DNA from: an uncultured Spirochaetota bacterium
GTDB lineage: Bacteria > Spirochaetota > B62-G9 > DRHN01
Reading direction: 5' to 3'
Length of the DNA stretch: 64,000 nucleotides
Assembly: GCA_964433545.1 (NCBI GenBank)
Contig: CAYSRJ010000014.1
Location: forward strand, 10,611-74,610
The notes under the pieces are model-generated. The model was given only the letters and a program-made list of their open reading frames with translations. It searched no databases and was not told where the DNA came from. Shown piece by piece: positions 34,289-53,762 of this stretch (its first letter is position 1; the number at the start of each line of letters is the position of its first letter). Position numbers and translations under genes: made by a program.

Positions 34289-34418
34289 AGCACATACTCG
34301 GCGTCGATCTACCTGGATTTAACAATTTTTGAGATATTACGGTTTGGTTGAATCGCCAGGTCGATGCTGAATGGGAATCGGCGGCATAGTACCGGTGTGT
34401 GATGAGAGGAGCGAATCG

Positions 34419-35765: not shown

Positions 35766-35783
35766 TAAAACCGGAGAACGTAC

Positions 35784-37268
35784 GTGGACATTTCATTGGA
35801 TAAAGAAACGGCTTTTGCAGAAGAGCCGCTTGTTTTTGAAAAGGGATCGCCGGGAAGAACCGCTGTCGAGCTCCCCGAGACCTGGAATAATGAAACCCTG
35901 CTGAAGAAATCGCTGCCTCCATCGATGATCCGAAATTCCTTCGAAGGGTTTCCAGAGATAAGCCAGGTCGAACTTGTCAGGCATTTCACGAGGCTTTCAC
36001 AGTGGAACTACGGGCTCGACACCGGGTTCTATCCCCTTGGTTCGTGTACCATGAAGTATAATCCGAAGGTCCATGAAGACATCGTGAAGCTCGAGGGTTT
36101 CAGCTTCATCCACCCCCTGCAACCGGAGGAGCTTGCACAGGGTGCTTTGCAGATTATGTACGAGCTTGAAAGATACCTGGCTTCTATCACCGGAATGGAC
36201 AGGGTTACGCTGCAGCCTGCGGCCGGAGCGCACGGGGAACTGACCGGCATGACTATGATACGGGCCTATTTTACGGACCGGGGAGAGAAACGGACAAAGG
36301 TGCTTATCCCTGATACAGCACACGGCACAAACCCCGCGAGTGTGAGTATGTGCGGGTTTACACCGGTGCCGATCAAATCGGGGAAAGGAGGGTGGCTGGA
36401 AGCTGCTGCGGTCGATGCGGTAATGGACGAAAACACCGCGGCGATCATGATCACCAACCCGAATACACTCGGAATATTCGAGGAGGAGATGGGCAGGATT
36501 GCAGAAATAGTACACAGTAAGGGCGGGCTTTTGTATATAGACGGTGCAAATCTCAACGCACTTATGGGAATTGTCCGCTTCGGGGATATCGGGTGTGATG
36601 TGCTTCACATGAATCTGCACAAGACCTTTTCAACTCCGCATGGCGGCGGGGGTCCCGGAGCCGGACCTGTTGCAGTCAAAGATACACTCGCCTCGTTTCT
36701 CCCTGTGCCCGTTATCGAGAAGAAAGACGATGTATTCAGCCTCGATTACGATCTTAAAAAATCGATCGGCAGGGTAAAAAGCTTTTACGGCAATTTTCTC
36801 GTCTGCGTCAGGGCGTATGCGTATATACGAACCCTGGGCTGGGCGGGACTGAAGAGGGTATCTCAGACAGCGGTGGTAAACGCGAACTACCTGCGTAAGA
36901 GGCTCGAGAGATATTTTTTCCTTCCATATAAAACACCGTGTATGCATGAGTGCGTCTTTACCGACAGGGAGCAGCAAAAACACGGTGTCAGCACACTTGA
37001 TATTGCGAAACGGCTCATCGATTACGAATTTCACCCGCCGACTATTTACTTTCCCCTCGTTGTGCATGGTGCGCTCATGGTCGAACCGACGGAAACCGAA
37101 AGCAGGGTAACGCTTGATCGTTTCATAGATGCAATGATAGCTATTGCTGATGAAGCGGAGAAATCCCCCGATATACTGCACAATGCACCGCAGAGGGTGA
37201 AAATAACGAGAGTCGATGAGGTACAGGCAGCGAGAAAGCCGATACTTCGATGGAAGGATATGAAATAG
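35784..37268 (+). CDS. gcvPB: glycine dehydrogenase (decarboxylating) subunit 2
   Basis: PLP-lysine region HMNLHKTFSTPHGGGGPGAGP. GTG start after GGAGAA. Confidence 0.85.
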   Translation: MDISLDKETAFAEEPLVFEKGSPGRTAVELPETWNNETLLKKSLPPSMIRNSFEGFPEISQVELVRHFTRLSQWNYGLDTGFYPLGSCTMKYNPKVHEDIVKLEGFSFIHPLQPEELAQGALQIMYELERYLASITGMDRVTLQPAAGAHGELTGMTMIRAYFTDRGEKRTKVLIPDTAHGTNPASVSMCGFTPVPIKSGKGGWLEAAAVDAVMDENTAAIMITNPNTLGIFEEEMGRIAEIVHSKGGLLYIDGANLNALMGIVRFGDIGCDVLHMNLHKTFSTPHGGGGPGAGPVAVKDTLASFLPVPVIEKKDDVFSLDYDLKKSIGRVKSFYGNFLVCVRAYAYIRTLGWAGLKRVSQTAVVNANYLRKRLERYFFLPYKTPCMHECVFTDREQQKHGVSTLDIAKRLIDYEFHPPTIYFPLVVHGALMVEPTETESRVTLDRFIDAMIAIADEAEKSPDILHNAPQRVKITRVDEVQAARKPILRWKDMK

Positions 37269-37445: not shown

Positions 37446-38505
37446 TCCAGAACTCCCTTTGAACACCCGAAACCTGATTGATTATCAGGTCGACATCCTG
37501 CCTGCGTCTGACACTGGGTTGTTCCGGAGAAACGTCATCTCTCTCACCGTTGAGGCGCAGCAAAACTTTTTTTACACTTTCTCTCAATGCCTCGAGGTTG
37601 TACCCTCCTTCGAGGGAGAGCAGTAGTTTCCCGTTCGCCGTGCTTTCTGCTGTATCCATTACTACACCGGCGAGAGAGGCGAATCCATCGGTTGTAACCT
37701 CCATTCCACCCAATGGGTCTTCGTAGTGGGCATCAAATCCTGCGGATACGAGCACGAGTTGCGGCCTGTACAGCAGCGAAATGGGTTTGAGCACTTTTTC
37801 AAACAGGGTTACGTATGCGTAGTCTCCGTATCTTGGTCCGAGAGGAATATTGACGGTGAACCCTCTGCCCCTTCCGCTTCCGGCTTCCATGACATCACCG
37901 GTTCCCGGATAGTAAGGGTATTGATGAATTGAAAAATAGAGCACCCTGTCATCCGAGTAGAAGGAATGCTGTGTACCATTACCATGATGAAGGTCCCAAT
38001 CGACGATAAGCACCCGTTCGAGCGCGTGATTCCTGATTGCATGTTCTGCGCCGACTGCGATGTTGTTGAAGATGCAGAAGCCCATGCCTCTGTTTGCCTC
38101 CGCATGATGGCCGGGTGGGCGAATAAGCGCAAAGACATTGTCACACTCTTCATTCATCAGTGCGTCGATACCACGCAGAACACCTCCTGCAGCGTAGAGG
38201 GCTGCTTCGAAAGACTTTGCAGAAAGCTGGGTATCCATATCGAGGGACGAATAAGGGATGCCTTCTGTCATAGCCACCTGTTCATAATATGCAGGCTTGT
38301 GGTTATACTCAATCTCCTCCTTTGTAGCCTTCCTGGGGGGAAGGTATTCGAGCTTTCCCGATATGTCTTTATCTTCAAGCATATCATAGAGAACCTCGAG
38401 CCGGCGGGGACTTTCCGGATGCGGCGGTCCAGTTTTGTGCTCGATAAAAATAGCGTCTTTCACGACTCCTGTCATAGGCACCCTCCTGACCATGAAGACA
38501 CACAT
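37435..38505 (-). CDS. histone deacetylase-family protein (acetoin utilization AcuC / acetylpolyamine amidohydrolase-like)
   Basis: HDAC motifs RPPGHHA, DWDLHHGNGTQ and GFD. The true start may be the internal Met (MTGVVKD, 38475). Confidence 0.75.
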   Translation of the reverse strand: MCVFMVRRVPMTGVVKDAIFIEHKTGPPHPESPRRLEVLYDMLEDKDISGKLEYLPPRKATKEEIEYNHKPAYYEQVAMTEGIPYSSLDMDTQLSAKSFEAALYAAGGVLRGIDALMNEECDNVFALIRPPGHHAEANRGMGFCIFNNIAVGAEHAIRNHALERVLIVDWDLHHGNGTQHSFYSDDRVLYFSIHQYPYYPGTGDVMEAGSGRGRGFTVNIPLGPRYGDYAYVTLFEKVLKPISLLYRPQLVLVSAGFDAHYEDPLGGMEVTTDGFASLAGVVMDTAESTANGKLLLSLEGGYNLEALRESVKKVLLRLNGERDDVSPEQPSVRRRQDVDLIINQVSGVQREFWSCF

Positions 38506-38558
38506 ATTCTACGGGGTGTATGGAACATGTGTTGTTTTTTCATTGAGTAAAAGTGCTT

Positions 38559-38688
38559 CCAGTACTACAGCGATACTTTTCATCTCAAGAGCGATTATGA
38601 TACGTTTTGCAGCGGGAAATACGGCCTGTTTTATGTCAAAGGTCTGCTTTTAAAACCATATAATCATTAAGTATCGCTGTAGTACCAG
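38559..38688. repeat. 20-bp inverted repeats (CCAGTACTACAGCGATACTT ... AAGTATCGCTGTAGTACCAG) flanking a 90-bp spacer; possible structured RNA or MITE
   Basis: 19 of 20 positions are complementary. Located between the HDAC-like and YbaK-like genes. Confidence 0.35.
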
Positions 38689-38708
38689 TCAAAGCGACAT
38701 TAATGAAT

Positions 38709-39170
38709 TCATTTGGCGATCTTTGCGATTTTCGGCTGAACCAGTTTATCAAAATCTTTGAAGGCGAGCTGAATGAGCTCCGTATGGGATCCTGCATTGA
38801 ATGCTATTTCTTCATTATTTTTTAAGGAGCTGTCGGCATACACTTCCATTCCGTACAGGTTGCCGAACGGCGGCATTGCACCCACTGCGCAGTCGGGAAA
38901 GAGGTCCTGAAACTCCTGTTCTCCGGCGATTTCCACCTTTTTTACACCTGTTGCTTTTTTGAGCATGTCCAGGTTTATCCTCATGCTTGCCGGAAGAACT
39001 GCCATAGCCATTTTTCCATCAGCCTTGATGACGACAGTTTTGGCAATCTTCTTTCCCCGTATATGGGTGGATGCTGCGACCTCCTGTGCCGTGTATGCGA
39101 GTGAATGCTTGATACTAACGTATTTAATAGTATTATCATCAAGAAACTGTTTTACTTTTTTAACCGGCAT
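38709..39170 (-). CDS. YbaK/ProX-type aminoacyl-tRNA deacylase domain protein
   Basis: 153 aa. YbaK-like fold motifs (KTVVIKADGKMAMAVLP ... GAMPPFG). Confidence 0.65.
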   Translation of the reverse strand: MPVKKVKQFLDDNTIKYVSIKHSLAYTAQEVAASTHIRGKKIAKTVVIKADGKMAMAVLPASMRINLDMLKKATGVKKVEIAGEQEFQDLFPDCAVGAMPPFGNLYGMEVYADSSLKNNEEIAFNAGSHTELIQLAFKDFDKLVQPKIAKIAK

Positions 39171-39296
39171 CTTTTGCCTCCTGTATAATGAATTATTTCC
39201 TGTTTTTCACAGTGTGGGCCGGAATTTAGATTCCCTCGGGCGCTGGCAGTGTAACGCTCAGTTCAATGTATGAATACAGAGTCAGCGGCACTGTTG

Positions 39297-39345
39297 AGTA
39301 ACTTCTCGCGAAGTTACTTTATGATATTCGGTCCCCGGGTACGTA
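39297..39345. repeat. REP/MITE-like element copy in reverse orientation (AGTAACTTC-tcgc-GAAGTTACT then TTATGATATTCGGTCCCCGGGTAC)
   Basis: The reverse complement matches the second module of the 53682-53727 copy, including the CCCCGGGGAC box. Confidence 0.6.
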
Positions 39346-39512
39346 AACCACTTTTAAGTAAATTGTTACACCAAAAAGCTGAAATTGCAATTGTATTATA
39401 TGCGGGAAAAAAAGAGGAAAATGATGTAATGTATGTAGGGTTTACAGTGGGGTTCTTTCTCTTGCGGTCTCACACGGGATTTATTATAATAGGCAGAAAA
39501 TGGAGGAATAAA

Positions 39513-40553
39513 ATGACCAAAAAGCTTATATCCATTGTTTTTTTCATCCTGACACTGGTTGCGGTTCCAGTTCTATCCTATTCCGCTGTCGTCGACTGGG
39601 TTTCAGGTGATGTTGCATACAGTCATCTGAAAAGCGCCTGGGAACAGCTTGATTCGGGGATGACACTGGTCTCAGGTGACATTGTCAAAACAGGCGAAGG
39701 CGGTGAGGCTACCCTCATTGACGAAGGGAGTGAAATGCATATAATGGCAAACTCTCAATTCACTATCTCGGAAAAATACGTGCAGGAGCAGAAAAAACCT
39801 TCTTTCATGCTTTTTATCGGGAGAATGAAGTTCAAGCTGGGCAAAAAAGCAAAGACTGAGCCGGATATTCAGACTCAAACGGTAAATCTCACCATCAGGG
39901 GCACCGAGTTTGAGGTGGGATCCGGATATGACGGGTCGACTATTGTCCTTTTGAATGAAGGAAGCGTTGCAGTGCAGGGGCAGAAGAATGAATTGGTTCT
40001 GCAGACGGGTGAAGGGACAGAGGTTGCGTTCGGGGAGGAACCGACGGAAAAGTTTAGAGTCATGACCAGAGTCATCGACTGGGACGCCTGGCTCGCAGAT
40101 TCACAGGAGGCCGTTAAAGGAAACGAAGTCTCACTTTTGGACAAAGTACTCGGCAGGTTTCAAGGGATAGAAGAAGACATCAATAAAAATGAGGTGCTGC
40201 GAGCTAGTGCGCAGAAAAAAAAGGATGAGTTTATTGCCGAGCGGGACAGGCTCATCGATGAGGGGAAAAAGGAGGAGGCGGATACATACTCCAAAAAAGC
40301 AGGGGAGCAAAGCAAGCTCGCTTTTCATTCTTTTGTGAATATACGGTTTTTAGCCCTTTCCACGATTGGTCTCTTTGACATGGCTGAAAGGATATATACG
40401 GGGATTGAAAAGCCGCCTAAAGAAGCTAGTGACCTGTTTGAACAGATTCAAAAAATATATAAAGATATAGAAGCAAAATATCTGTATGAAGGAGACAGGG
40501 AACGGCTCGAAAAAAAGGCTGAAAAGAAAAAGGGGTGTAGCAAACTGTTTTAA
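39513..40553 (+). CDS. secreted FecR-domain protein with C-terminal coiled-coil/charged region
   Basis: Signal peptide, then a FecR-like domain (VSGDVAY...LVSGDIVKTGEGGEATLIDEGSEMHIMANSQF...RGTEFEVGS...EGSVAVQG). Confidence 0.6.
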   Translation: MTKKLISIVFFILTLVAVPVLSYSAVVDWVSGDVAYSHLKSAWEQLDSGMTLVSGDIVKTGEGGEATLIDEGSEMHIMANSQFTISEKYVQEQKKPSFMLFIGRMKFKLGKKAKTEPDIQTQTVNLTIRGTEFEVGSGYDGSTIVLLNEGSVAVQGQKNELVLQTGEGTEVAFGEEPTEKFRVMTRVIDWDAWLADSQEAVKGNEVSLLDKVLGRFQGIEEDINKNEVLRASAQKKKDEFIAERDRLIDEGKKEEADTYSKKAGEQSKLAFHSFVNIRFLALSTIGLFDMAERIYTGIEKPPKEASDLFEQIQKIYKDIEAKYLYEGDRERLEKKAEKKKGCSKLF

Positions 40554-40557
40554 GACC

Positions 40558-40582
40558 GCCGCCCTCAACCGGGCGGCATTTT
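40558..40582 (+). terminator. intrinsic terminator GCCGCCC-tcaacc-GGGCGGC-ATTTT
   Basis: 7-bp GC stem followed by a T-tract immediately after the stop codon. Confidence 0.5.
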
Positions 40583-40631
40583 AATACATGCCGGTTAGAG
40601 CGTTTTTTGGGTATATTAGTTTCAGGTATAT

Positions 40632-41846
40632 ATGGAACCGAAACGATACACATGTATGTTACTGCTGTTGCTGATCCTTTCCTTTTTCAATTCTCAATTT
40701 CTATCCGCTCAGGTACACAATGAGAAGCCCCTGAATGCAGGTGAAGATGAATCTTTATTCCCTGAGTATGAGGTGGAACACCTGAGTGAGCCTCCGGAAG
40801 GAGCCGATACGATTTTTCCGGTAATTTTTAATGGCTCACTCTACTCTTTTTCTCTCGGCAGCTCAAAACCCATCTGGAAGATATTTATTGGCGGTGATCT
40901 TTTAAATCCATTTACTGTTCAAAATGGAGATGTTTACTTCTACGACATTTATAACAGATTGTACGCTGTTGATTTAAGAAGTGGAAAAGTGTCCTGGGTA
41001 TCCATGATCAAGGAAGAAATCAGGGGGGAACCGGTTATTTATGGTGATTATTTGATTGTTTCCACCTTTAACGGCGGTATATATGTCCTGATTCGCTCGG
41101 ACGGACATCTGGTATATTCGTATGAAAATGAGGATGAGATAATTGCGGGGATGAATATATATAAAAACCTTCTGGTCGTTCCATTTAAGAGCGGGAAGCT
41201 GGTTGCCTATGATATGGGATCAAGAAAGCAACAATGGAGCTTTGGCACGAATGGTATCATCAACGTATCTCCGGTGGTGAGGGACACCAGCCTTTATTTC
41301 GGTGCATGGGATGGAACATTCTATGCACTCGATGTTAGAACTGGTAAATCAAAATGGATACGTTATGTTGGCGATAATACAACAAGAGATTTTCTTGTTT
41401 TTAAAAACGTGATCGTTCTTTTTTTCTCAAAGGGAGAAGTCGTGTGTTTAAATCGAGAAACGGGCGCTATTGAATGGATAAAATATTTTTCCGGTGTGGA
41501 TTTCAATTACAATTATTTTTCGGGAGAAAAGGCGATGTATGTTTTTCTGCCTGATTTCACTGCCTTCGACCCGATGAACGGTGGTTTGCTCTTCGATTAT
41601 AGAGAGAGAGCGTTCAATTTATATAAGGAGATGCTGTTTGACAATATGGTTGAGGGAAAAAATCCACTTTCTAACGAAGATAGAATCGGGCTCCTTTCCG
41701 ATGAGTTTTTTTCTGTCGATGCCTTTCCCTATCTTCCGCCGGCGAGGGCCGGTAAAAACCTTGTGTACTTTGTCACTGGTAATGCCTATCTATACGTGTA
41801 CGATTTGCTCAAGGATTTTTTTATTTTAAAATATAAAATGAGTTAG
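40632..41846 (+). CDS. secreted PQQ-repeat beta-propeller protein (BamB-like fold)
   Basis: Signal peptide. Repeated 'Y..D...G...W' blades (LYAVDLRSGKVSW, LVAYDMGSRKQQW, FYALDVRTGKSKW, VVCLNRETGAIEW). Confidence 0.6.
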   Translation: MEPKRYTCMLLLLLILSFFNSQFLSAQVHNEKPLNAGEDESLFPEYEVEHLSEPPEGADTIFPVIFNGSLYSFSLGSSKPIWKIFIGGDLLNPFTVQNGDVYFYDIYNRLYAVDLRSGKVSWVSMIKEEIRGEPVIYGDYLIVSTFNGGIYVLIRSDGHLVYSYENEDEIIAGMNIYKNLLVVPFKSGKLVAYDMGSRKQQWSFGTNGIINVSPVVRDTSLYFGAWDGTFYALDVRTGKSKWIRYVGDNTTRDFLVFKNVIVLFFSKGEVVCLNRETGAIEWIKYFSGVDFNYNYFSGEKAMYVFLPDFTAFDPMNGGLLFDYRERAFNLYKEMLFDNMVEGKNPLSNEDRIGLLSDEFFSVDAFPYLPPARAGKNLVYFVTGNAYLYVYDLLKDFFILKYKMS

Positions 41847-41856
41847 GAATACAAAG

Positions 41857-42354
41857 ATGAAGACAAAAAAAATGTATTGTCCTAAAACCGGGTGGCTGTG
41901 TATTGCCGTGATCACGGTTGTGCTTCTGATTGCTGTTTCCTGTGCAACCAGAGAAAAGACAATTGTCGATCGTGCCGGAATAAAGGGTACGGTTGTGCCG
42001 ACTGATGCATCCGGAAATGAAATAGAGATGCAGGACAGAGGCGGCGTCATTATCAACTGCATTCCGTTGCGTGAAGGAAAGCAAAAACAGGAGATGGCTA
42101 TCACGGCAAATACGCAGAATGACGGAAGTTTTTCTATTGGTTTACCAGGCGGTGAGTATATGATCGAAATATTTCTCGAGGGGTTCTATGTCAAGAGCTT
42201 TCACCTCGACCTCAAGGCCGGTAAACGGTACAATCTGGGGAAGATAGCACTTCGAAAGATAGAGGTGGGTGAGGGAATGCCACTCAAAAATAGCGAACAG
42301 AAGGAAAATATCGGCAGCGAGGGTGATGTTACCATACAGCCGCCTGTGATGTAA
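41857..42354 (+). CDS. lipoprotein with carboxypeptidase-regulatory-like (CarboxypepD_reg) domain
   Basis: Lipobox-like IAVSC. GIKGTVV...DGSFSIGLPGGEYMIEI pattern. Confidence 0.5.
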   Translation: MKTKKMYCPKTGWLCIAVITVVLLIAVSCATREKTIVDRAGIKGTVVPTDASGNEIEMQDRGGVIINCIPLREGKQKQEMAITANTQNDGSFSIGLPGGEYMIEIFLEGFYVKSFHLDLKAGKRYNLGKIALRKIEVGEGMPLKNSEQKENIGSEGDVTIQPPVM

Positions 42355-42381
42355 TACCACCGACAAAGTCGAGTTGAGTCA

Positions 42382-45081
42382 TTGAACAGATTAAACACAT
42401 TTATTATCCTTTTTTTCAGTTTTGCTCTCACGGTTCTTGTAATGTATCTATTTATTACCGAACAGTATGAAAAAGAGATCGTAACGATTACGGCACCCCT
42501 CAAGATTGAAACCTACAGAATCGACCGTTTTCCCCTTCCGGATGCCGACATATACCTCAACCAGAAATTTATAGGTAAAACAGATGAAAAGGGTTTTTTT
42601 TCAACAAATGTGGATTTGAATGTTGGCGAGTCGTATACACTTATTATTGAAAGAGAGAACAATGGGTATGAATACGGGCCGTGGGAAACCCATTTCAAAG
42701 TCGTCGGGGAAGAACAGAGGGCAAAGAAGAAAGAAAAAAAGGGTGAGGAGAACATGCCGACTCTTGAAGGGGAATCTGATATACTGACAGAGCTTCAACG
42801 CGCAGAGCTCGGGAAGGCGAGTCTGTATGAAAAGTATCACTTTCTCGCTATCATAGACGGTCATATGTACTACACCCTGGAAGTACGCCGGGGCAATCCG
42901 GTGGCGGACGCATCGGTTATTATAAACGGCACATATATGGGAAAGACCGACAGGACCGGCCGATTTACCGTGCAGTACTCCGGACAGGAGAAACGGAAGG
43001 AAGAAATACAGGTCTCGAAGGAGGGGGAGCACACCTGGATTAAACGAATTGACGTATATCCCGATGCAGTAATAACGGCTGATCTTGACAGGAGGCTCTC
43101 TATCGAGATGTATGCGGTAACTGATAATTATAACGTTATTAGAGGCATTGAAGGTACGCGGGTTTTCATAGATGACCGGTATATGGGTATATCCGGGCCC
43201 GATGGTCGGATCTCGTTCAATTATGAAAGTGAAAAAGGAGTGGACCGGGAACTACAACTTGTCGTTTTATACCCATCGAACTACTTCCCTGACAGAATTG
43301 TTATAACATACGATATACATAGGGAGCTGCCTGCTTTGCAGGATTATGTGTTTTCCTATACAAAGACACCTGTCCCTCCGGGTGTCGCTGTATTCCCGCT
43401 TGCCGTCAGCAACAGGGATGATCCGCTTCTCAAACGCAAGGCTGAGGATGTCAAAACGAGGATTATCGACTATCTTACGAGTGCCGGAGTATTTCACAAT
43501 GTGTCCAGTAAGGCCATGCAATTGGCGCGTGAAGAGGGCCTAACCCTTGCGAAGAAAGGTGTGAACTGGAGTGATATTCCGGAGATTAAAAGTAAAGTGG
43601 ATGGAGTAATATTCGGAAGTCTGGGTCGAAGCGGAACATTATTTCAACTGTACTTATGCGGTGTTGACTACACAGGGGAAGTTATCAGTGAGATAAACAA
43701 GTTTGTTACGATGCGGGAAGTACAGTCAGTGCTCGAAGATTTTACCACTTCCTTCATGAAAAATTTTCCGTTTGAAGGGAACATTTCTTCGATCGGAAAT
43801 AAAATGTATATTAATCTCGGAAGACGGCAGGGTGTTGCGCGGGATAACAAATTTTACAGCTACTACGAATATTTTGATAGAATAAAGGGTGATTATTCAA
43901 AAAAAAGAGTGGCGCGGCTCGTTGTTGTTGATACCGGCGAGACACTTTCTGCATGCACCCTGGAGACGATAAGTGAGGGGTATCTTCTCGAAGCAGGCGG
44001 AAGGGTAAAACGGTATCGGGAACCGATACAGGAATTAAAAGAGATTCCTGTCACTATTGTTGTTACTTCGGGCAGGGACATGGTTGGGAATGCAAATGTA
44101 TACCTCGATGACCGCTGGCGGGGGCAGACGAATGAGAATGGGGAGCTTCAGCTCTCTCTGGCCGAGAGTCTCGATGCAGACATTCTCGTGTACAAAGAGG
44201 GGTATAAGCCTGCAAAAATTGCGCTTAAAGTTCGGGAAGACAGCAGGAAGATAACTGTTGATCTTAGGCGTGGAAAGACCGCATTTATTGTCGATTCGAA
44301 TCCCCGTGATGCGCTTCTTTTTATTGACGGTGATTTCAAAGGAAAAACTCCGATAATAAAAAAGCCGATACAGGTGCCGTACGGCTATCATCTTGTTGAG
44401 TTGAAGCGTGAAGGGTATAAAGAGTATAAAAAATATATAAGCTTCGGAGAGAAGAGGTTTTCTCTAACCGGTGATGAAGCTGTTCGCCTCTATAAAGATT
44501 ACTATACTGATGCTGAAAATGAATATAAAAAAGGGAATATACACGGGGCAATTATCACCCTGCAATCGGTCTCCCGTGAGCACCCTGATTTCGGACGGGC
44601 GGCTGAATTTCTTGCCTTTATATACTTGAATGATTTGAAAGATAATGAACAGGCACTTTATTATTACAACAGAGCAATTGAAGTTTTAAATGATGATCTA
44701 TCTGTCATTTCATACTACAACATGGGGCAGGCATATTTCAATATTGCTGAAAAGCTCTTTTATACCGATGCACGAATTGCAGAGGAAAATTATAGAAATG
44801 CGATTTCAGCATTCAATGTGATCCGGGAGAAAAAGAATCGTCTCAATATCGGCCAAAGGAAAAATGTATACCAGAATACTCTTTTTTATCTTTCTGTATC
44901 CTATCAGAAGTTGTACTATATGACCAATCAGAGTGAGTATTTGACAAAAGCGTTTTACTCCTGGGCAGACTATTTCGATTTTTTTAATGAAAAACTTATG
45001 GAAGAGCAGCAATTTAGAGACCAGTATGCGGTTGCGGTTTCATACAGAGATGAGGTGAAGAGGTTGAGAGGTGAAAAGTAA
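42382..45081 (+). CDS. large membrane-anchored envelope protein: N-terminal TM, multiple PEGA domains, TolB_N-like domain, C-terminal TPR repeats
   Basis: PEGA-like repeats (ADIYLNQKFIGKTDEKGFFS; ASVIINGTYMGKTDRTGRFTV; TRVFIDDRYMGISGPDGRISF; ANVYLDDRWRGQTNENGELQ; ALLFIDGDFKGKTP...GYHLVELKREGY). VAVFPLAVSNRDD is a TolB_N-type segment. TPR-like C-terminus. Confidence 0.55.
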   Translation: MNRLNTFIILFFSFALTVLVMYLFITEQYEKEIVTITAPLKIETYRIDRFPLPDADIYLNQKFIGKTDEKGFFSTNVDLNVGESYTLIIERENNGYEYGPWETHFKVVGEEQRAKKKEKKGEENMPTLEGESDILTELQRAELGKASLYEKYHFLAIIDGHMYYTLEVRRGNPVADASVIINGTYMGKTDRTGRFTVQYSGQEKRKEEIQVSKEGEHTWIKRIDVYPDAVITADLDRRLSIEMYAVTDNYNVIRGIEGTRVFIDDRYMGISGPDGRISFNYESEKGVDRELQLVVLYPSNYFPDRIVITYDIHRELPALQDYVFSYTKTPVPPGVAVFPLAVSNRDDPLLKRKAEDVKTRIIDYLTSAGVFHNVSSKAMQLAREEGLTLAKKGVNWSDIPEIKSKVDGVIFGSLGRSGTLFQLYLCGVDYTGEVISEINKFVTMREVQSVLEDFTTSFMKNFPFEGNISSIGNKMYINLGRRQGVARDNKFYSYYEYFDRIKGDYSKKRVARLVVVDTGETLSACTLETISEGYLLEAGGRVKRYREPIQELKEIPVTIVVTSGRDMVGNANVYLDDRWRGQTNENGELQLSLAESLDADILVYKEGYKPAKIALKVREDSRKITVDLRRGKTAFIVDSNPRDALLFIDGDFKGKTPIIKKPIQVPYGYHLVELKREGYKEYKKYISFGEKRFSLTGDEAVRLYKDYYTDAENEYKKGNIHGAIITLQSVSREHPDFGRAAEFLAFIYLNDLKDNEQALYYYNRAIEVLNDDLSVISYYNMGQAYFNIAEKLFYTDARIAEENYRNAISAFNVIREKKNRLNIGQRKNVYQNTLFYLSVSYQKLYYMTNQSEYLTKAFYSWADYFDFFNEKLMEEQQFRDQYAVAVSYRDEVKRLRGEK

Positions 45082-46429
45082 GGGCTGGCTGGTAATTTTA
45101 GTGCTTATGATCGTATCACTGGTTCTTTCAGCAGGCTGTGCAGGGGAAGCTGTACGCTCCACACACCCTGAAAAGCCCGATGAATCTGTGATTGAACCTG
45201 AACAGCCTGAGGAAAAAGCTGCTGAAGAAAACGTTACCGTTGATTATCAGGGAATCGAGTTGAAGCTCTTTGATTTCATGCAGGTGGAGCAAATACCGGG
45301 CCTGTATAACTCATACAATCCTCAATTCTCGACAAATGAAAAGTATCTGGCATTCGAGGTGGATCAGGGCACGATTAAAAAGATCCGTATCTATACAATC
45401 GGTATCAACAAGCCGACTTATGCACTGGAGTTTGAAAAGGTGAAAGAAGTTTCTCTGACAGATACATCAGCGGATCAGCTTACGGACGATCTTTTCGAGT
45501 CTTTTACCGAGGAAAGTTTCAATTATGAATTCACCTGGTTTCCGTTCAGCAGCTCGTTTATATTTACGTCCAATGCAGGCCGCGGCGAATACAATTTATA
45601 CGCGGGTTCAGTGCAGGAGAATGACCGGGTGCTGAGGCAAATACAGGAGTCGTTGCATCCAAAACAATACAACGGCTATTTCATGGTCACCGAAGAGTTC
45701 AGAAAAGACGGACAGGCACGGGTTTCCCCGGATGGAAAAAAGATAGTATTCAGCTCAGGAAGAACCGGCAACGGAGACCTCTACCTTTTTGACATAACGA
45801 ACGGGACGCTTGACCAACTCACTACCGGCATGGCTACCGATCTTTTTCCACAGTGGTCTCCTGACGGTAAGGATATCGTATTTACCACCGGGGGAAAGAC
45901 CGCTCATGATATTCATATAATTCGTGATGTAGGTTCTCCCGGTCAGCATGAAGATGTGCTGGTGAGCTGGTTTTTCGACGATGAGCTTCCATCTTTTTCG
46001 CCTGACGGCAAATTTGTTTCCTTTTATACAACCTATAATCGGGAGCGCGACCCGTTCAATACAAAACGGTGGGGAATAATGATTGTTCCTTCAGACGGTT
46101 CGGGACCCAATGCCGGGAAAGAACTTATAGATTATTTCCATATCCCGAATGTAATTAAAGACAACACGCAGGGAACTGCATGGTTCCCCGACAGCAGGCA
46201 TATCATCTTTGCTAAAAATATTGATAGCGATTACAATCCAATTTATATTTATGATATCCAGAAGAGAACAGAAGAGTATGTCGATACCGGTACACGCATA
46301 AATCACGATATAACTGTTTCCCGCCATGGATTAGTCTCATTCCGTGCCCAACAGCTGGGCTGGGACAGAATATTTACCGCATCTTCTACATATTTTCAGG
46401 AATATTTGAATGAAAAATTTGCGAAATAA
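45071..46429 (+). CDS. TolB-like WD40/beta-propeller lipoprotein
   Basis: Lipobox LSAGC. Repeated SPDGK.IVF motifs (SPDGKKIVFSS, SPDGKDIVFTT, SPDGKFVSFYT). Confidence 0.6.
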   Translation: MKSKGWLVILVLMIVSLVLSAGCAGEAVRSTHPEKPDESVIEPEQPEEKAAEENVTVDYQGIELKLFDFMQVEQIPGLYNSYNPQFSTNEKYLAFEVDQGTIKKIRIYTIGINKPTYALEFEKVKEVSLTDTSADQLTDDLFESFTEESFNYEFTWFPFSSSFIFTSNAGRGEYNLYAGSVQENDRVLRQIQESLHPKQYNGYFMVTEEFRKDGQARVSPDGKKIVFSSGRTGNGDLYLFDITNGTLDQLTTGMATDLFPQWSPDGKDIVFTTGGKTAHDIHIIRDVGSPGQHEDVLVSWFFDDELPSFSPDGKFVSFYTTYNRERDPFNTKRWGIMIVPSDGSGPNAGKELIDYFHIPNVIKDNTQGTAWFPDSRHIIFAKNIDSDYNPIYIYDIQKRTEEYVDTGTRINHDITVSRHGLVSFRAQQLGWDRIFTASSTYFQEYLNEKFAK

Positions 46430-47990
46430 GCGCCCTGGTGCCGTTTTACTATTTTTGCTGCTTTTTTTTTCCAGCACTCAGGCGGTATACCCGATTCCGA
46501 AGGAGATCGAGGAGGCGCTGAAGCTGAATCGTGTAAACCATTTTGATGAAGCGCTGCAGGTTGTCGAGAAAGCACTGGCGGAAGAAAAAATAACACCCGA
46601 CATTACTTCAGCGTATACTGTAGGTCGAATACTGTACCGCAAAGGCGAACTATACCGTAAAATTGCCGAAGTAAGTATATTGACCAGCATTGGACGCATA
46701 CGGCAGATCAAAGATGATGAAAAAAAATTACCGGACGAACTGAAATTATTTCTCGCAAAAGGATACTTTTTCAATCACCAGTATACGGATGCTGCTGAAA
46801 TTCTGAAACAGGTGGTAAACAGCTCTAAACTATCTGACGAGTTTTTGGCCCTCGCACGGGTGTACCTCGGTGCAACCTATTACCGGCTCGGTGATAAGAA
46901 AAAGGCTGAAGCGATGTGGCAGGGTATACGTGAAAAGCAGGTATACGCCTATTCCACACTCGGACTGTTATACGCGCTTCTAGGTATCAATCCATCCGGG
47001 GGAGAGCTGATGACGAGAAAGGCGATCGAGCACCTCTCCGATTTGAGAAAATCACTTTCACCGGAAATGATGAAGTCCTACAAGTATGTATTGCAGGTAT
47101 ACCATGCGTTCTCACTGCTGACGCTTGGCAGATTTCATGATGCCTATTCGGAAGTCAAAGGTGTCAGGCTCGATATGCCGGTGTACGTATACACTCCTTC
47201 TAGGGTTACATCCTCTAAAGAGGATGTATCCTCTTTAGAGAACATGCACATGAGGTTTTATGATGTCGCACTCCTGCTTTGCTACAGCAGGATTATTTTC
47301 GGCGAATCTATAAAGAATCTCGAACCGATTGTTTCAGCTTCATCCGGAGAACTTGCGAGCTTCGCCTCTTTTTACGTGGCTCAGATGTACCTGTATCTGG
47401 AGGATTATGAAACCAGCCTCAAGTTTGCATTAAAGGCCAGAAAGTTATCGGTAACAGGTTCGCTTACGATGTACAGGGCAATTGCATGCGAAAGCGTAAA
47501 CTATATGCTTGCCGGAAAACAGAAAAAGGGTAACAGGATCATTTTAAAGGAAATGGAATCAATATTCGGTAAACCCTCATTTCTTCTTGAAATGATGAAA
47601 GTTGTTATATCATCCGGCGTCACGTACAAGCAGGTGAAGGATATAATCGCTGATGTCGAATCTTATATATATGAAACAGAGTGGGAGAAAACAAGAAGAG
47701 ATTCTGCTTTGATGGGTGAGCTGTCTTTCTTTGCGGGTAACTTCCCAAAGGCTCTGTACTATCTCGAACGGGCCCGTGACAAAGGCAACAAGAACAGGAT
47801 TGAGACCAATGACCCGGGTTTCCTGCTGAAACTGTCATACGTATATTACAGCAGAGAAAGTTACCCGGAGAGTCTAGAGATTCTTTTTTCTCTCGGAAAA
47901 TATTTTTCCGGTATAAGACCTGTGCAGGATGCTATACAGACTGTTTACTCGTATAAGCAGAAAGGTACAGGTGAGATACTCATCGAGTGA
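46410..47990 (+). CDS. secreted tetratricopeptide-repeat protein
   Basis: Signal peptide and multiple TPR-like helical hairpins. Overlaps the preceding gene by 20 nt. Confidence 0.5.
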   Translation: MKNLRNKRPGAVLLFLLLFFSSTQAVYPIPKEIEEALKLNRVNHFDEALQVVEKALAEEKITPDITSAYTVGRILYRKGELYRKIAEVSILTSIGRIRQIKDDEKKLPDELKLFLAKGYFFNHQYTDAAEILKQVVNSSKLSDEFLALARVYLGATYYRLGDKKKAEAMWQGIREKQVYAYSTLGLLYALLGINPSGGELMTRKAIEHLSDLRKSLSPEMMKSYKYVLQVYHAFSLLTLGRFHDAYSEVKGVRLDMPVYVYTPSRVTSSKEDVSSLENMHMRFYDVALLLCYSRIIFGESIKNLEPIVSASSGELASFASFYVAQMYLYLEDYETSLKFALKARKLSVTGSLTMYRAIACESVNYMLAGKQKKGNRIILKEMESIFGKPSFLLEMMKVVISSGVTYKQVKDIIADVESYIYETEWEKTRRDSALMGELSFFAGNFPKALYYLERARDKGNKNRIETNDPGFLLKLSYVYYSRESYPESLEILFSLGKYFSGIRPVQDAIQTVYSYKQKGTGEILIE

Positions 47991-48090
47991 AAGTCTCGTT
48001 TCTTTTATCTGCCCGGAAAATTTGAAGTATTGTGAATTTATCGGAGTGTATTGCAAGATTCCCAATCAGGATTAAAATCGGGGATGTGAA

Positions 48091-49707
48091 ATGAAACAGT
48101 TCAAACGAACAGTATTTTTCAGTGCGGTTTTTATTCTTATAGCCCTGTGTGCTGCACCCATACTTTTTTCGCAGGAGCCGGGCGGCACCCTCGTATATGG
48201 AGAGTACGGCGCACCAACACGTCTTGTGCCGATACTTGCGAACGATTCGATATCCATCCGCCTCATAGAGCTGATCTATGGTTCTCTTGTATACTACGAC
48301 CCCGACGGAGAAATAAAGGGTGACCTTGCTAAAAGCTGGGACATTGCAAAGGATTTAAAAACCGTGACCTTTTATCTACGCGATGATGTCCGCTGGCATC
48401 CGATGCCCGGAGAATCGGATGGAGAGCTGTTTACCGCCGATGACGTTGTAAAAACATATAAAATCATGATGCACCCGAATACGATAACCTCGCTGCAATC
48501 CAGATACAATTTTATCGCTTCAGTGAAGAAGATCGATGATTATACCGTTATGTTTAAATTGAAAAAACCGGTTTTGAATGTGCTGGGCAGATTCAGCTTC
48601 AAGATTCTTCCGGCATACCTCCTGAGGGGTGTATCGTATCTGCGCGGCGATGAAGATCTCTCCATTTATAAACATCCGATCGGAACGGGCCCGTATATGT
48701 TCGTTTCTCAGAAAGGACCGTCTTCAGAGATAGTATTGAAGGCGTATGACGCGTATCATCTCGGGAGGCCCTTTATAGATACAATCATTATGCGGCCCTT
48801 TGCCGATCAGAATATTATAACTCAAACTCTCCTCTACGGCGGTATCGATATGGAGATCAGGGTTCCGCCGCGTGACATCGCCGAGATACAGGGAGACTCG
48901 CGTTTTGAGCTCAATCCCTACAGCACACTATCATTTTCCTTTTTCGGATATAATTTGAGAAATCCGGTGCTTGCGATAAAGGAGGTGCGGCAGGCGATAT
49001 CCTACGCGATCAACAGACAGGAAATGCTTGATTCATTTTTTGAAGGCAAGGGCCAGCTGATTTCCGGACCTTTCGCACCGGGAAGCTGGGCATACAACCT
49101 CGATGTCAAGCCAATCGTCTATTCTGTGGACAAGGCAAACAGTCTCCTCGACCGGGCCGGGTTTACCGAGTGGACAAAGGGTATTCGCAAGAGAGGCAGC
49201 TATGAGCTCAGATTTGAGATGGTGGTGCCCATATCGAAGGAGAACGAAACAACAAAGAGGGTCATACTCGCATTTCAGAATTACCTGCAGAAGGTCGGCA
49301 TACAGGTAGATATTAAATGGCTTGAATGGAAGGCGTGGACAGAGGCCGTGTTCATAGACCATAAGTTTGATATAATTTATGCAGACTGGATTTTCGATGA
49401 TTCATTTGATATTTCCTCTCTGTTTCACTCACGGGAAATCGGGATTGGGAAAAACAACTTTGGGGCCTATAGAAATCCCGAGGTTGATGCCCTGCTGGAT
49501 GAAGCGAATACAACCCTTGATATGGAGAAAAAAAGAACCATATACAGGCAGCTCCACGCTATCCTTGCAGAGGATGTACCGTATACCTACCTGTGGACCC
49601 TTACAAATTATGCAGCCTATAACAGGAAGGTGAGACGGGTGGAGATTCATCCAACCCGTTTCTTTACCTACGTGAGGGAATGGTATATCCAGAGAGGGGG
49701 AGGATGA
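48091..49707 (+). CDS. ABC transporter substrate-binding protein, family 5 (peptide/nickel, DppA/OppA-like)
   Basis: Signal peptide. SBP_bac_5 signature region (LVYYDPDGEIKGDLAKSWDI...). Confidence 0.8.
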   Translation: MKQFKRTVFFSAVFILIALCAAPILFSQEPGGTLVYGEYGAPTRLVPILANDSISIRLIELIYGSLVYYDPDGEIKGDLAKSWDIAKDLKTVTFYLRDDVRWHPMPGESDGELFTADDVVKTYKIMMHPNTITSLQSRYNFIASVKKIDDYTVMFKLKKPVLNVLGRFSFKILPAYLLRGVSYLRGDEDLSIYKHPIGTGPYMFVSQKGPSSEIVLKAYDAYHLGRPFIDTIIMRPFADQNIITQTLLYGGIDMEIRVPPRDIAEIQGDSRFELNPYSTLSFSFFGYNLRNPVLAIKEVRQAISYAINRQEMLDSFFEGKGQLISGPFAPGSWAYNLDVKPIVYSVDKANSLLDRAGFTEWTKGIRKRGSYELRFEMVVPISKENETTKRVILAFQNYLQKVGIQVDIKWLEWKAWTEAVFIDHKFDIIYADWIFDDSFDISSLFHSREIGIGKNNFGAYRNPEVDALLDEANTTLDMEKKRTIYRQLHAILAEDVPYTYLWTLTNYAAYNRKVRRVEIHPTRFFTYVREWYIQRGGG

Positions 49708-50579
49708 CACGTTTTCTGAAGCTTATCGTGAAAGAAGTCGTCTATACATTCCTCCTTGTCATTGGCGTGAGTTTTCTTCTCTTTTTACTTTTTAACATGA
49801 TGCCTGGGGAATTCCTGGGAAAAGGGGAAGGGGTTCGTTCCTTCATGCTTCTCCTTAAAAGGTTATTCACTCTCCATTTCGGTGTTTCGATTGTTTCAGG
49901 AATCGATATCAACAGTATTATCTTCCCCGCATTTAAAAATACGCTTATTCTTACTGTTGGTGCCCTGTTTATTTCTCTCCTGTTCGCAGTTCCTATTGGT
50001 ATCTTTTCCGCATTCAGAGGATTTAAAACATACTCCTGGCCACTCTCAATGCTTTCGTATATCGTATCCTCGATCCCTGTTTTTTATTTCGGCTACCTTG
50101 TGCTTTATCTGGTATCAAGATACACGGGATACCTGCCTATCTACTACGTGCAGGCCAGTGGAACAGGCAGTAGAGTTCTGGCATATTTGCTTCCGATTCT
50201 TGTTCTCGGCCTGGGTAACAATTCCATCTGTGAAATTGTTCGTTTGATTACTATTGAACTGGATAGGGTAATCGGCACCGACTACGTCGCCGCTTCCAGG
50301 GCGCGGGGGGAGTCGATTCTTGCAAGCGCGGCAGGCGAGGGTATTCTTATACCGCTGGTATCAATTGTATTTTCGAAGGTGCCGTTTATAATAGGCGGGG
50401 CTGTAATTGTTGAACAGGTTTTCAACTGGCCCGGCATGGGAAGGCTGGCCTTTCAATCGACACTCGACAGGGATATGCCTGTTCTTATCGTTATTGCATT
50501 TCTTTCAGTCCTGATGGTGCGGGTGGGGATGATTGCACGAAATATACTACTCTTTCACCTGAATCCGAGAGAGGCATAA
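49704..50579 (+). CDS. peptide ABC transporter permease (DppB/OppB-like)
   Basis: ATGA overlap with the SBP stop. RBS GAGAGGGGGAGG. BPD_transp_1 fold. Confidence 0.8.
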   Translation: MTRFLKLIVKEVVYTFLLVIGVSFLLFLLFNMMPGEFLGKGEGVRSFMLLLKRLFTLHFGVSIVSGIDINSIIFPAFKNTLILTVGALFISLLFAVPIGIFSAFRGFKTYSWPLSMLSYIVSSIPVFYFGYLVLYLVSRYTGYLPIYYVQASGTGSRVLAYLLPILVLGLGNNSICEIVRLITIELDRVIGTDYVAASRARGESILASAAGEGILIPLVSIVFSKVPFIIGGAVIVEQVFNWPGMGRLAFQSTLDRDMPVLIVIAFLSVLMVRVGMIARNILLFHLNPREA

Positions 50580-50582
50580 TAT

Positions 50583-51476
50583 ATGAAGCGATTTTACTAC
50601 GAAGAGGAACCGGTCGATATCGAAGAGTTTTATGTTCCGATATACAGAAGGGCAAGTGTTCGTGATGTTGTCTCCATAGGATTCGGTCTTTTTGTTGTTG
50701 CGTATCTCTTTATTTTTTATTTCATATCGATAACCAATACCTTCATTCAGAATCCGATGGACGTGCATGTTGATCAGATGTTTCAGCGGCCGTCGTTTGA
50801 GCACCTGTTTGGAACAGATTTTCTCGGACGCGATATATTTTCAAGAATTGTCAAGGGCACAGAAGCATTTTTTGTTCCCGGGCTGCTATCAATAGTCATC
50901 TCGACCTCTTTCGGTCTCCTCTTCGGAGTTGTCACCGGTTTTTACCCAAAAATCTTGTCGAGTATAATCTTCTATTTTCTCAATATCATAGATTCAATAC
51001 CGCGCCTGATTCTAATCCTCATTATCATTGTGCTGTTCAGGCCGTCAATATACCTTGTCATGGTTTTTGTCGGTATAACGAGCATTCCGAAAATGACCGC
51101 CTATATACGATCGAAAGTAGAGATATTGAAAAACCAGCGTTTCATTGAAGCGGGGAAAGCTCTCGGCCTTTCACCGGGAAGCATTGTTTTCAAACATATT
51201 GTATGGCTTTCAGCGAAGTCTGTATTAATAATCCATGCAACACTGGGGATGGGAGAAGCTGTGCTGATCGAGACGTCACTCTCATATCTGGGTTTTGGTG
51301 TTCAGGAACCCGACCCAAGCTGGGGGAATATGGTTGCTATGGGTATCGATTTCTTTTTTCAGGGCAGGCTGTGGTTGTCGACAATCCCCGCTGTTGTCAT
51401 CCTTACAACCATAATGGGCCTCTATTTACTCGGTGACGGACTGAACTCCATTTATAATGAAAAGGTTTCTCGATAA
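50583..51476 (+). CDS. peptide ABC transporter permease (DppC/OppC-like)
   Basis: N-terminal OppC_N-like segment and permease core. Confidence 0.8.
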   Translation: MKRFYYEEEPVDIEEFYVPIYRRASVRDVVSIGFGLFVVAYLFIFYFISITNTFIQNPMDVHVDQMFQRPSFEHLFGTDFLGRDIFSRIVKGTEAFFVPGLLSIVISTSFGLLFGVVTGFYPKILSSIIFYFLNIIDSIPRLILILIIIVLFRPSIYLVMVFVGITSIPKMTAYIRSKVEILKNQRFIEAGKALGLSPGSIVFKHIVWLSAKSVLIIHATLGMGEAVLIETSLSYLGFGVQEPDPSWGNMVAMGIDFFFQGRLWLSTIPAVVILTTIMGLYLLGDGLNSIYNEKVSR

Positions 51477-52627
51477 TGCCGTTAATTGCATCGTTGGGCG
51501 GATTGAAGGTCTATTTTTACGACCAGAAGGACAAGCGGTTCATTCGCGCAGTGGAGGATGCTTCGCTGAGTATCGATGAAGGCTCTGTACTGGGACTGGT
51601 GGGTGAATCTGGGTGCGGCAAGACCGTCACCGCGCTTTCCTTGATGGGACTCGTTGATTCCGAACCAGGTATCGTGGGAGGCGAGTTTTACTTTCGGCCG
51701 AAAAGGGATGACAGGAGGGCGGTTATACATGCGATTCTACGCGGCTTCGGGAAATCGAGGAACTACAGACGGGGGGAGCTCGTTAATCTCTTCTACGGAC
51801 TCGAAAGCTTCATCGAGTTTCGGTATAACCCCTTTACAATGATCAAGGATAACGAAAAATGGCTCCGCAGGCATAACAGAATCATGGAGCACATACGGGG
51901 AAGAAATATTTCAATGATTTTTCAGAATCCGCTTCGAAGCCTCAATCCTTTTACACCGGTCGGAGCGCAGCTCATGAAAACCATCGAACGATTCAATCAG
52001 GAGAAGAATGAGAATGAGATTTATGAGATGGCTGTGGGTCTTCTGCGGTCTACACTGCTGTACAATCCGGAGAGTATTATGAAGATGTACCCCGGCTCAC
52101 TCTCTCTGGGTATGGCGCAGAGAGTCATTATTGCGATTGCCCTTGCATCAAATCCGACACTCCTTATTGCCGATGAGCCGACTTCCGGACTTGATACGAC
52201 GAACAGGTACAGGATCATCGATCTTCTTGAAACAATCATTGAAAAAATGAATCTGACACTTATGCTCATATCGCACAATATACACATTGTCGGGCTTATT
52301 GCAACCAATGTAGCCGTCATGTATGCGGGTATAATTGTGGAGAGCGGGAGCAAGCGGGATGTAATAGGCAAGAAGCACGGACCGAAGCATCCTTATACAC
52401 GGGCTCTTGTTTCCTCAATGCCGACAGATTCGGATATCAAGAGGGGGAAGAGACTGCGGGTGATTCAGGGTACTGTACCGGATAATAAAATAGCGATACG
52501 CGGCTGCCCCTTCATAGACAGGTGTCAATATGCAAAGGGAAAAATCAGGAGGAGGTGCAGGGAGAAGTGCCCTGATCTTGTCGAGGTTGGGAAGAATCAT
52601 TTTATACGCTGTTATCTTTATTATTGA
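51476..52627 (+). CDS. peptide ABC transporter ATP-binding protein (DppD/OppD-like) with about 55-aa insertion after Walker A
   Basis: GESGCGKTVTA, then an unusual insert before MIFQNPLRSLNP. C-terminal oligopeptide-ABC Cys-rich tail. Confidence 0.8.
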   Translation: MPLIASLGGLKVYFYDQKDKRFIRAVEDASLSIDEGSVLGLVGESGCGKTVTALSLMGLVDSEPGIVGGEFYFRPKRDDRRAVIHAILRGFGKSRNYRRGELVNLFYGLESFIEFRYNPFTMIKDNEKWLRRHNRIMEHIRGRNISMIFQNPLRSLNPFTPVGAQLMKTIERFNQEKNENEIYEMAVGLLRSTLLYNPESIMKMYPGSLSLGMAQRVIIAIALASNPTLLIADEPTSGLDTTNRYRIIDLLETIIEKMNLTLMLISHNIHIVGLIATNVAVMYAGIIVESGSKRDVIGKKHGPKHPYTRALVSSMPTDSDIKRGKRLRVIQGTVPDNKIAIRGCPFIDRCQYAKGKIRRRCREKCPDLVEVGKNHFIRCYLYY

Positions 52628-52639
52628 TGCGAGGAGGGC

Positions 52640-53578: not shown

Positions 53579-53622
53579 GCGCACCGGTGTAGAAATTCTG
53601 TATTTTGCCGATATAAAAGCGG

Positions 53623-53735
53623 CGGCTTCGCGGCTGAGTATCAAACAGTAACTTGTTCGAAGTTACTTAGAAGCGGCATACGTCCCCGGGGACCGAATAT
53701 CATAAAGTAACTTCGTGAGAAGTTACTTAGAAGAA
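53623..53735. repeat. full-length composite REP/MITE-like element with two hairpins and a central GTCCCCGGGGAC box
   Basis: GGCTTCGCGGCTGAGTATCAAAC. AGTAACTT-gttcg-AAGTTACT-TAGAAG. GTCCCCGGGGAC (53682-53693). AGTAACTTC-gtga-GAAGTTACT-TAGAAG. Confidence 0.65.
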
Positions 53736-53762
53736 TCGTGTATACAATAATAGAAGGGTATC

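Follow-up and report, generated by a model that had tools for sequence, protein, structure and literature searches.

The 64,000-nucleotide stretch of DNA from an uncultured Spirochaetota bacterium analyzed here (contig CAYSRJ010000014.1; hereafter the window) contains a 12-gene operon-like block, g1 to g12, that encodes an ATP-binding cassette (ABC) importer together with a conserved accessory module for which we found no description. The evolutionary unit within this block is a nine-gene cassette, g3 to g11, found in several uncultured lineages, in which four genes for envelope or periplasmic proteins (g3-g6) are followed by genes for a substrate-binding protein (SBP; g7), two permeases (g8, g9) and two ATPases (g10, g11). 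On balance we lean towards the view that g3-g6 make up a putative periplasmic accessory scaffold for a dedicated peptide importer formed by g7-g11, a proposal drawn from sequence and gene order. The original prediction for this locus covered g1-g6 (39513-47990) and interpreted them as a stand-alone envelope complex. That interpretation is partly supported by our analysis, and the unit is best read as a transporter with unusual helper proteins.

Conservation and extent of the cassette

A word-indexed search for the g4 family returned 42 members, all about 900 amino acids (aa) long and all from uncultured Spirochaetota. Scanning the GTDB species genomes located 17 loci, all of them in Spirochaetota metagenome-assembled genomes (MAGs), with g4 identities of 40-90%. 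When these loci were searched with the window proteins using tblastn, g1-g12 were strictly colinear in 17/17 as far as the contigs reach, so the synteny that the original prediction had proposed as a check is present. The genes upstream of g1 and downstream of g12 vary among these genomes. A further homologue search with a diverse g4 alignment recovered only the same Spirochaetota clade. In an exhaustive g4 profile search, 237 cluster representatives reached E<=1e-30. Of the 150 matches listed, about 100 span profile positions 160-900 in one stretch and so share the g4 architecture. Matches from outside the Spirochaetota carry the labels 'bacterium', 'Pseudomonadota bacterium' or 'Gammaproteobacteria bacterium' and are MAGs.

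Two distant loci, L029 and L033, encode g3-like, g4-like, PD40 and g6-like proteins, an SBP, two permeases and two ATPases, and the homology of the distant cassette parts was confirmed by phmmer. A metagenome scan with a g5 alignment produced 80 loci. Forty of them contain true g5 orthologues (E<=1e-51), 37 of which are non-spirochaete, and 40 loci with generic PD40 proteins (E ~1e-15 to 1e-20) from the same scan served as the control. Among the 37 non-spirochaete loci, counting for each gene those that could be assessed, the g5 orthologue is accompanied by g4 in 23/23, by g3 (upstream of g4) in 16/18, by g6 in 27/29, by the SBP in 24/24 and by g8-g11 in 6/7, the exceptions being the PilZ variant described below, L072 and L073. 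MurJ (g12) was found beside it in 0/6 and g1 or g2 in 0/9, and no other module gene was found in any of the control loci (0/40). The flanks beyond g3-g11 are not conserved in the metagenome loci. From the neighbor counts and the unconserved flanks it follows that the evolutionary unit is the nine-gene cassette g3-g11, and the six genes g1-g6 can no longer be regarded as a unit.

The importer and its putative accessory proteins

The product of g7 is a family-5 SBP (SBP_bac_5, E 1e-76, 259 bits against a cut-off of 32) with a type-I signal peptide. The adjacently encoded g8-g11 supply two BPD_transp_1 domains, two ABC_tran domains and oligo_HPY, which is the layout of the PepT family. At the domain level the importer is therefore a member of the PepT ABC family that matches no named equivalog. 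The SBP is the most conserved component of the cassette: its identity across lineages is 39-53% where that of g4 is only about 24%, and phmmer scores of g7 against the SBPs of distant cassettes are 612, 519 and 415 bits. Its best solved SBP, AppA of Bacillus subtilis, reaches 199 bits, and the Escherichia coli OppA model scores it at 61 bits. By sequence comparison, g7-type SBPs thus form their own dedicated subfamily. A WxFDDS motif is invariant in the cassette SBPs, and its first Asp aligns with Asp408 of E. coli DppA, the residue that binds the alpha-ammonium group of the peptide in that protein. The OppD-like g10 aligns to reference models in two stretches, with about 70 extra residues between approximately positions 60 and 130. 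As the corresponding ATPases of distant cassettes are of similarly large size (366-367 aa), these residues may be a subfamily-specific insertion.

Domain searches confirmed most assignments made from the sequence of the first six genes, namely FecR in g1, PQQ in g2, PEGA and TPR in g4, a PD40 propeller in g5 and TPR in g6. The largest of the accessory proteins, g4, was modeled with AlphaFold2 (AF2) from 25 homologues (mean pLDDT 84.8; domains in Table 1). In Pfam it matches PEGA (E 1e-18; PF08308, 67.4 bits against a gathering cut-off of 20.8, in two stretches, with a third match at 175-235, E 4e-6), CarbopepD_reg_2 and a C-terminal TPR region. The prediction of about five PEGA domains agrees with the model in number, as AF2 shows five beta-sandwiches, but Pfam recognizes only two to three of them. 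An S-layer association suggested on the strength of PEGA found no supporting evidence. The central region of g4 has no Pfam match even at E<=10, and when PDB sequences were searched with a profile the single match, CofJ, was not significant (E 0.24). The relatives of its alpha/beta domain are detected by fold comparison only. These are TolB of E. coli (score 12.6) and Acinetobacter baumannii (11.8), a Vibrio LPHT-ring flagellar basal-body protein (10.9), HP0492 (10.5) and HpaA (9.8), PelC (9.1), CsgG (9.0), DUF330 (8.9) and PqiC (7.4), LpoB (8.2) and LptE (6.6). Structural superposition therefore places the domain in the TolB_N/LpoB fold class, as the original prediction of a TolB_N-like domain had it.

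The product of g5 contains three PD40 repeats (E 3.5e-19) and carries an acidic linker of about 45 residues after its lipid anchor. The top 12 solved relatives of its family profile are all TolB (best E 2.8e-30), with S9 peptidase propellers next. Because g4 has a TolB_N fold, g5 has TolB as its relatives and the 11-nt overlap between the two genes is also found in relatives, the pair looks like a split TolB, and the Tol-like flavor noted earlier is borne out. Anchoring differs among lineages: Spirochaetota g4 has a transmembrane anchor, whereas its counterparts in other lineages are lipoproteins, and g5 is lipidated in some lineages only. On its own, g5 is not a complete TolB, scoring 77 bits against a cut-off of 343 for the single-protein model TIGR02800 and having no TolB_N. 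Membership of Tol-Pal itself was rejected, as the TolQ-TolR-TolA motor and Pal (OmpA_C) match none of the 12 genes or their neighbors.

A TolB-type pair raises the alternative that the module is a cell-wall growth regulator resembling Tol-Pal or Lpo, in which the split TolB pair and the TPR proteins would bridge the membranes and control peptidoglycan synthases, the SBP would act as a muropeptide sensor or recycler and MurJ would supply lipid II. Besides the TolB character of g5, this would fit the finding that MurJ closes the block in each of the 11 Spirochaetota loci extending that far and the presence of YkuD, SLT and SH3_3 genes directly upstream of one distant homologue (L030) and of a diaminopimelate (DAP) epimerase gene near another (L032). 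However, MurJ is found in none of the six assessable non-spirochaete cassettes, and TolQRA, Pal, penicillin-binding protein genes and a peptidoglycan-binding domain are all missing from the block. The SBP is nearer to AppA and DppA than to OppA and MppA, and the main form of the cassette retains a complete importer, all of which makes such a regulator unlikely.

The small lipoprotein g3 consists of a beta-sandwich, a variable acidic linker and a C-terminal tail. The CarboxypepD_reg domain ascribed to it is present as a weak match that, at 22 bits, stays below the 32-bit cut-off. The tail is invariant throughout the g3 orthologues compared (L008-L025, L028-L030 and L033): all 18 from Spirochaetota end in EGDV(N/T/S)I(Q/E)PP plus 1-2 residues, with GEVNIQPP or GSVSIQPP as the form in distant lineages. 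It is probably a tethered docking peptide. The product of g6 matches TPR families and is highly conserved in its C-terminal segment (~436-521). By word search its family is clade-restricted; phmmer shows homology to proteins of 481-491 aa in L029 and L033 (E 1e-22).

The most conserved segment of the g6 family also weakly matches FlcA_CTERM (4/14 members, best E 6.7e-5). This bears on the idea that TPR, beta-sandwich and TolB_N-fold proteins form a collar-like or H/T-ring-like scaffold of the periplasmic flagellar motor, collar proteins being rich in TPRs (bioRxiv 10.64898/2026.05.29.728556). Two variant loci, L032 and L034, have a PilZ gene next to g4 and carry FliK and FlgD genes no more than 6 kb away, but opposite-strand genes separate the latter two from g4. 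The window g6 scores only 18.7 bits (E 4.9e-4) with FlcA_CTERM NF047371, at the level of generic TPR matches and far from the >=300 bits expected of the spirochaetal collar protein FlcA, as which it was rejected. Neither the window nor the Spirochaetota loci have a flagellar gene in or beside the block, and the invariant partner is an ABC importer. A flagellar role is hence very improbable.

Clade-specific additions and other features of the window

The FecR protein g1, the PQQ protein g2 and MurJ (g12) are additions specific to this Spirochaetota clade. While g1 is present in all Spirochaetota relatives, neither it nor g2 is found in the nine loci assessable elsewhere, and MurJ follows g11 in 11/11 Spirochaetota loci that extend that far. 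The identity of g12 is clear, with 417 bits against a cut-off of 235 for the equivalog TIGR01695 and a Pfam MurJ match at E 5e-109. For g1, a start at 39513 is preferred over a longer open reading frame (ORF) from 39270 because GGAGG lies 7 nt upstream, the orthologues are 345-359 aa long and a REP-like palindrome falls inside the alternative 5' extension. Its product matches FecR in Pfam (E 1.2e-10), shows weak LipL45 and LapA-retention matches and has no relative among solved structures. It was rejected as a FecR-type anti-sigma factor, having only a signal peptide and a FecR domain; its upstream neighbors are genes for a tRNA_edit protein and a deacetylase, and a sigma factor gene is not among them. 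The product of g2 matches PQQ_2 (E 2.8e-20). It was likewise rejected as BamB, the accessory lipoprotein of the beta-barrel assembly machinery (BAM), since it scores 84.6 bits against a cut-off of 285 (TIGR03300) and has no lipobox. In Treponema pallidum, TP0484 is annotated as FecR and TP0487 as PQQ-like; no usable literature was found on that locus.

The terminator predicted before g2 corresponds to a GC-rich hairpin after g1 with a poor T tail. Only L009 and L010, the two closest relatives, keep it, and they show compensatory differences in the loop. In the remaining relatives the g1-g2 gap is -10 to +135 nt and the hairpin is absent, and some of these junctions are short or overlapping. 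It is possibly a partial terminator or an RNA-stabilizing element, and in view of this narrow occurrence it was rejected as an operon boundary. The ORFs of the six co-oriented genes are as predicted, and all six carry export signals or a membrane anchor. As read from the translations, g1, g2 and g6 have type-I signal peptides and g3 and g5 have lipoboxes (IAVSC and LSAGC), and the N-terminus of g4 is an uncleaved hydrophobic helix (helix 2-28 in the AF2 model). The two overlapping junctions foreseen among them measure 11 nt (g4/g5) and 20 nt (g5/g6). Gaps of 100 nt and 184 nt precede g7 and g12 in the window; within the block of Spirochaetota relatives intergenic gaps range from -22 to ~60 nt, and that before g7 is -2 to 26 nt in most. 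An Rfam scan of 38400-56400 gave no match at E<=1, so no known riboswitch or leader is present.

A repetitive extragenic palindrome (REP)-like element, AAGTAACTTCG(Y)GAGAAGTTACT(Y)AGAA, occurs in intergenic regions, with 3 matches in the window versus 0 expected by chance and a further variant copy. It is also found within the g6-g7 gap of L009. The copies flank the 12-gene block and widen its intergenic gaps compared with other members of the clade. Elsewhere in the window, serine hydroxymethyltransferase (SHMT, residues 89-425) and a T-protein domain of the glycine-cleavage system (GCV_T, 704-980) are joined in one ORF of 1100 aa, an unusual fusion, and two genes for glycine-cleavage P-protein subunits lie downstream of it.

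Table 1. Positions of the block genes, g4 domains and other features (window coordinates unless residues or a locus are named)
Feature	Position	Strand	Description
g1	39513-40553	+	346 aa secreted FecR-domain protein, K/E-rich helical C-terminal half; clade-specific 5' addition
Hairpin GCCGCCC-N6-GGGCGGC	40558-40577	+	GC-rich, weak T tail, 3' of g1
g2	40632-41846	+	404 aa secreted PQQ/BamB-like beta-propeller; clade-specific addition
g3	41857-42354	+	165 aa lipoprotein: beta-sandwich, acidic linker, conserved C-terminal tail; first cassette gene
g3 C-terminal tail	42322-42354		Conserved tail
g4	42382-45081	+	899 aa membrane-anchored multi-domain protein, TTG start
g4 domain	residues 1-28		Transmembrane helix (AF2 model)
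g4 domains	residues 35-106, 153-234, 238-324		Three beta-sandwiches (AF2 model)
g4 linker	residues 111-150		Disordered, K/E-rich (AF2 model)
g4 domain	residues 334-461		TolB_N-fold alpha/beta domain (AF2 model)
g4 domain	residues 465-544		Small beta-barrel (AF2 model)
g4 domains	residues 554-627, 632-695		Two further beta-sandwiches, 632-695 being a PEGA match (AF2 model)
g4 domain	residues 707-897		TPR-like helical domain (AF2 model)
g5	45071-46429	+	452 aa PD40 beta-propeller lipoprotein, GTG start
g6	46410-47990	+	526 aa secreted TPR/helical-repeat protein
g7	48091-49707	+	538 aa SBP_bac_5 periplasmic substrate-binding protein
g8	49680-50579	+	ABC permease, BPD_transp_1; colinear in relatives
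g9	50583-51476	+	ABC permease, BPD_transp_1; colinear in relatives
g10	51476-52627	+	ABC ATPase, oligo_HPY C-terminal domain, OppD/DppD-like
g11	52640-53578	+	ABC ATPase, OppF/DppF-like; last gene of nine-gene cassette
g12	53763-55307	+	MurJ lipid II flippase; clade-specific 3' addition, end of Spirochaetota-conserved block
REP-like copy	7057-7084	+
REP-like copy	39292-39319	-
REP-like copy	53705-53732	+
REP-like variant	~53640-53680
SHMT-GCV_T fusion	27971-31273	+	1100-aa ORF
P-protein subunit genes	34371-37268		Two genes
PilZ, L030	16396-17268		c-di-GMP-binding, ~290 aa
PilZ, L031	6117-6962		c-di-GMP-binding, ~290 aa
PilZ, L032	12719-13618		c-di-GMP-binding, ~290 aa
PilZ, L034	13237-14148		c-di-GMP-binding, ~290 aa
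PilZ, L072 and L073			c-di-GMP-binding, ~290 aa

Proposed function and comparison with known systems

Starting from gene order, and building on the domain content, the fold assignments and the dedicated SBP subfamily, we infer a physical complex with a role in uptake. In this proposal g4 and g5 would act together as a split TolB-like unit, with the TolB_N-fold domain and TPR region in g4 and the propeller in g5. A membrane or lipid anchor, five immunoglobulin-like beta-sandwiches and long disordered linkers would keep this unit in the periplasm. The conserved C-terminal tail of g3 would dock it on the assembly, and g6 would contribute a further repeat surface. The assembly might place the soluble binding protein g7, supply it with ligand or control its access. 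In turn, g7 would bind a ligand whose alpha-amino group is free, in all likelihood a peptide, and hand it over to the g8-g11 transporter. A cell-wall-derived peptide as the ligand is speculative; the weak hints are MurJ in the clade, the YkuD, SLT and SH3 genes at L030 and the DAP epimerase near L032.

Several observations weigh against this proposal. The physical tie of g3-g6 to the transporter is postulated from gene order. Identity of g7 with a named transporter is not seen, the best equivalog, Opp4A, giving 194 bits where the cut-off is 650, and the Lys aligned to Arg355 of DppA is not kept in all lineages. The 12-gene block encodes no protease, peptidoglycan-binding domain or outer-membrane barrel. 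Finally, some loci lack the full transporter: L028 has g3-g4-g5 alone, L030 and L031 have (g3)-g4-g5-SBP-PilZ, with g6 and the permease and ATPase genes replaced by a PilZ protein, and L032 and L034 have only g4-PilZ. An adjacent transporter is therefore not a requirement for the scaffold to occur.

The PilZ proteins that follow the module in six loci (L030-L032, L034, L072 and L073) are orthologous, and in this lineage the gene before the g4-like one encodes a membrane protein with a single pass (x329/x303); together they suggest a signaling version of the module. They could also point to an accessory module for exopolysaccharide or fiber secretion under cyclic di-GMP (c-di-GMP) control, of the type with a PelC/CsgG-like ring and TPR proteins. 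This we regard as highly unlikely, given that a glycosyltransferase, a synthase or an outer-membrane barrel is encoded in no cassette examined, that PilZ occurs in neither the window nor the main nine-gene form and that g12, which scores above the equivalog threshold for MurJ, is no generic flippase of the Wzx type.

The loci with g3-g5 but no transporter (L028) or with g4 and PilZ alone (L032, L034), like the wide gaps before g7 and g12 in the window, would also be expected if the six secreted proteins were a self-contained envelope scaffold and the ABC transporter and MurJ mere operon neighbors without a functional link. The original prediction had argued for a pure scaffold from the lack of any enzyme, transporter ATPase or regulator, which holds within the six genes, but the next five genes encode an ABC importer. 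The argument fails in context because g3-g6 are followed by the SBP and, in the main form, by the complete importer. Moreover, the SBP follows the accessory genes in all 24 assessable loci, across lineages in which g4 is only about 24% identical, it belongs to a dedicated subfamily, the gap before g7 is narrow in most relatives and g1 and g2 fall outside the conserved set. A self-contained scaffold is therefore quite unlikely.

A bolder version of the accessory-scaffold proposal is that the cassette encodes a new trans-periplasmic uptake machine, widespread in uncultured soil, sediment and Spirochaetota lineages, in which a split TolB-like scaffold of g4 and g5, with docking by the g3 tail and with g6, would link a peptide importer physically to the outer envelope. 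We put this forward as a tentative and rather doubtful possibility. The original prediction could not map the domain combination to any named system, and our full-text literature search for it likewise found no matching system or description. Textbook binding-protein-dependent ABC importers have five components and are not known to include a periplasmic scaffold of their own. In the cassette, four additional conserved periplasmic proteins are co-inherited with one specific importer across distant uncultured lineages. If the association is functional, it would represent an undescribed way of organizing periplasmic solute capture, possibly tied to cell-wall peptide turnover, and the TolB fold would gain a setting outside Tol-Pal. 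The g3 C-terminal tail, the SBP WxFDDS motif and the translationally coupled g4/g5 pair offer experimental handles.

Among known systems, the Opp, Dpp and App importers share the five-component layout of an SBP_bac_5 protein, two BPD_transp_1 permeases and two ATPases with oligo_HPY domains. The equivalent of DppA Asp408 is retained in g7, and AppA is its closest solved SBP. The cassette differs in that it reaches no equivalog threshold, its SBP falls in a subfamily of its own and its importer genes are preceded by four conserved periplasmic accessory genes, for which we know of no counterpart in any described Opp or Dpp system. The accessory proteins share folds with TolB, LpoB, PqiC and LptE, yet none qualifies as a Tol-Pal component, a BAM lipoprotein, a FecR anti-sigma factor or FlcA. 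In Tol-Pal, with its TolB and CpoB/YbgF, TolB is a single protein; here its two domains are split over two, the genes for TolQ, TolR, TolA and Pal are missing and the module is tied to an ABC importer instead of a proton-motive-force motor. The auxiliary lipoproteins PqiC/DUF330, LptE, LpoB, PelC and CsgG have no sequence-level relation to g4, a 900-aa protein in which the fold is combined with five beta-sandwiches and a TPR region and whose partner machine is an SBP-dependent importer. Of the clade-specific proteins, g1 resembles Leptospira LipL45 in having a FecR domain behind a signal peptide (weak match, E 6e-5) but lies far below the family cut-off (22 against 350 bits), and g2, a PQQ-like propeller without a lipobox, aligns only partially with BamB, also far below the cut-off (85 against 285 bits).

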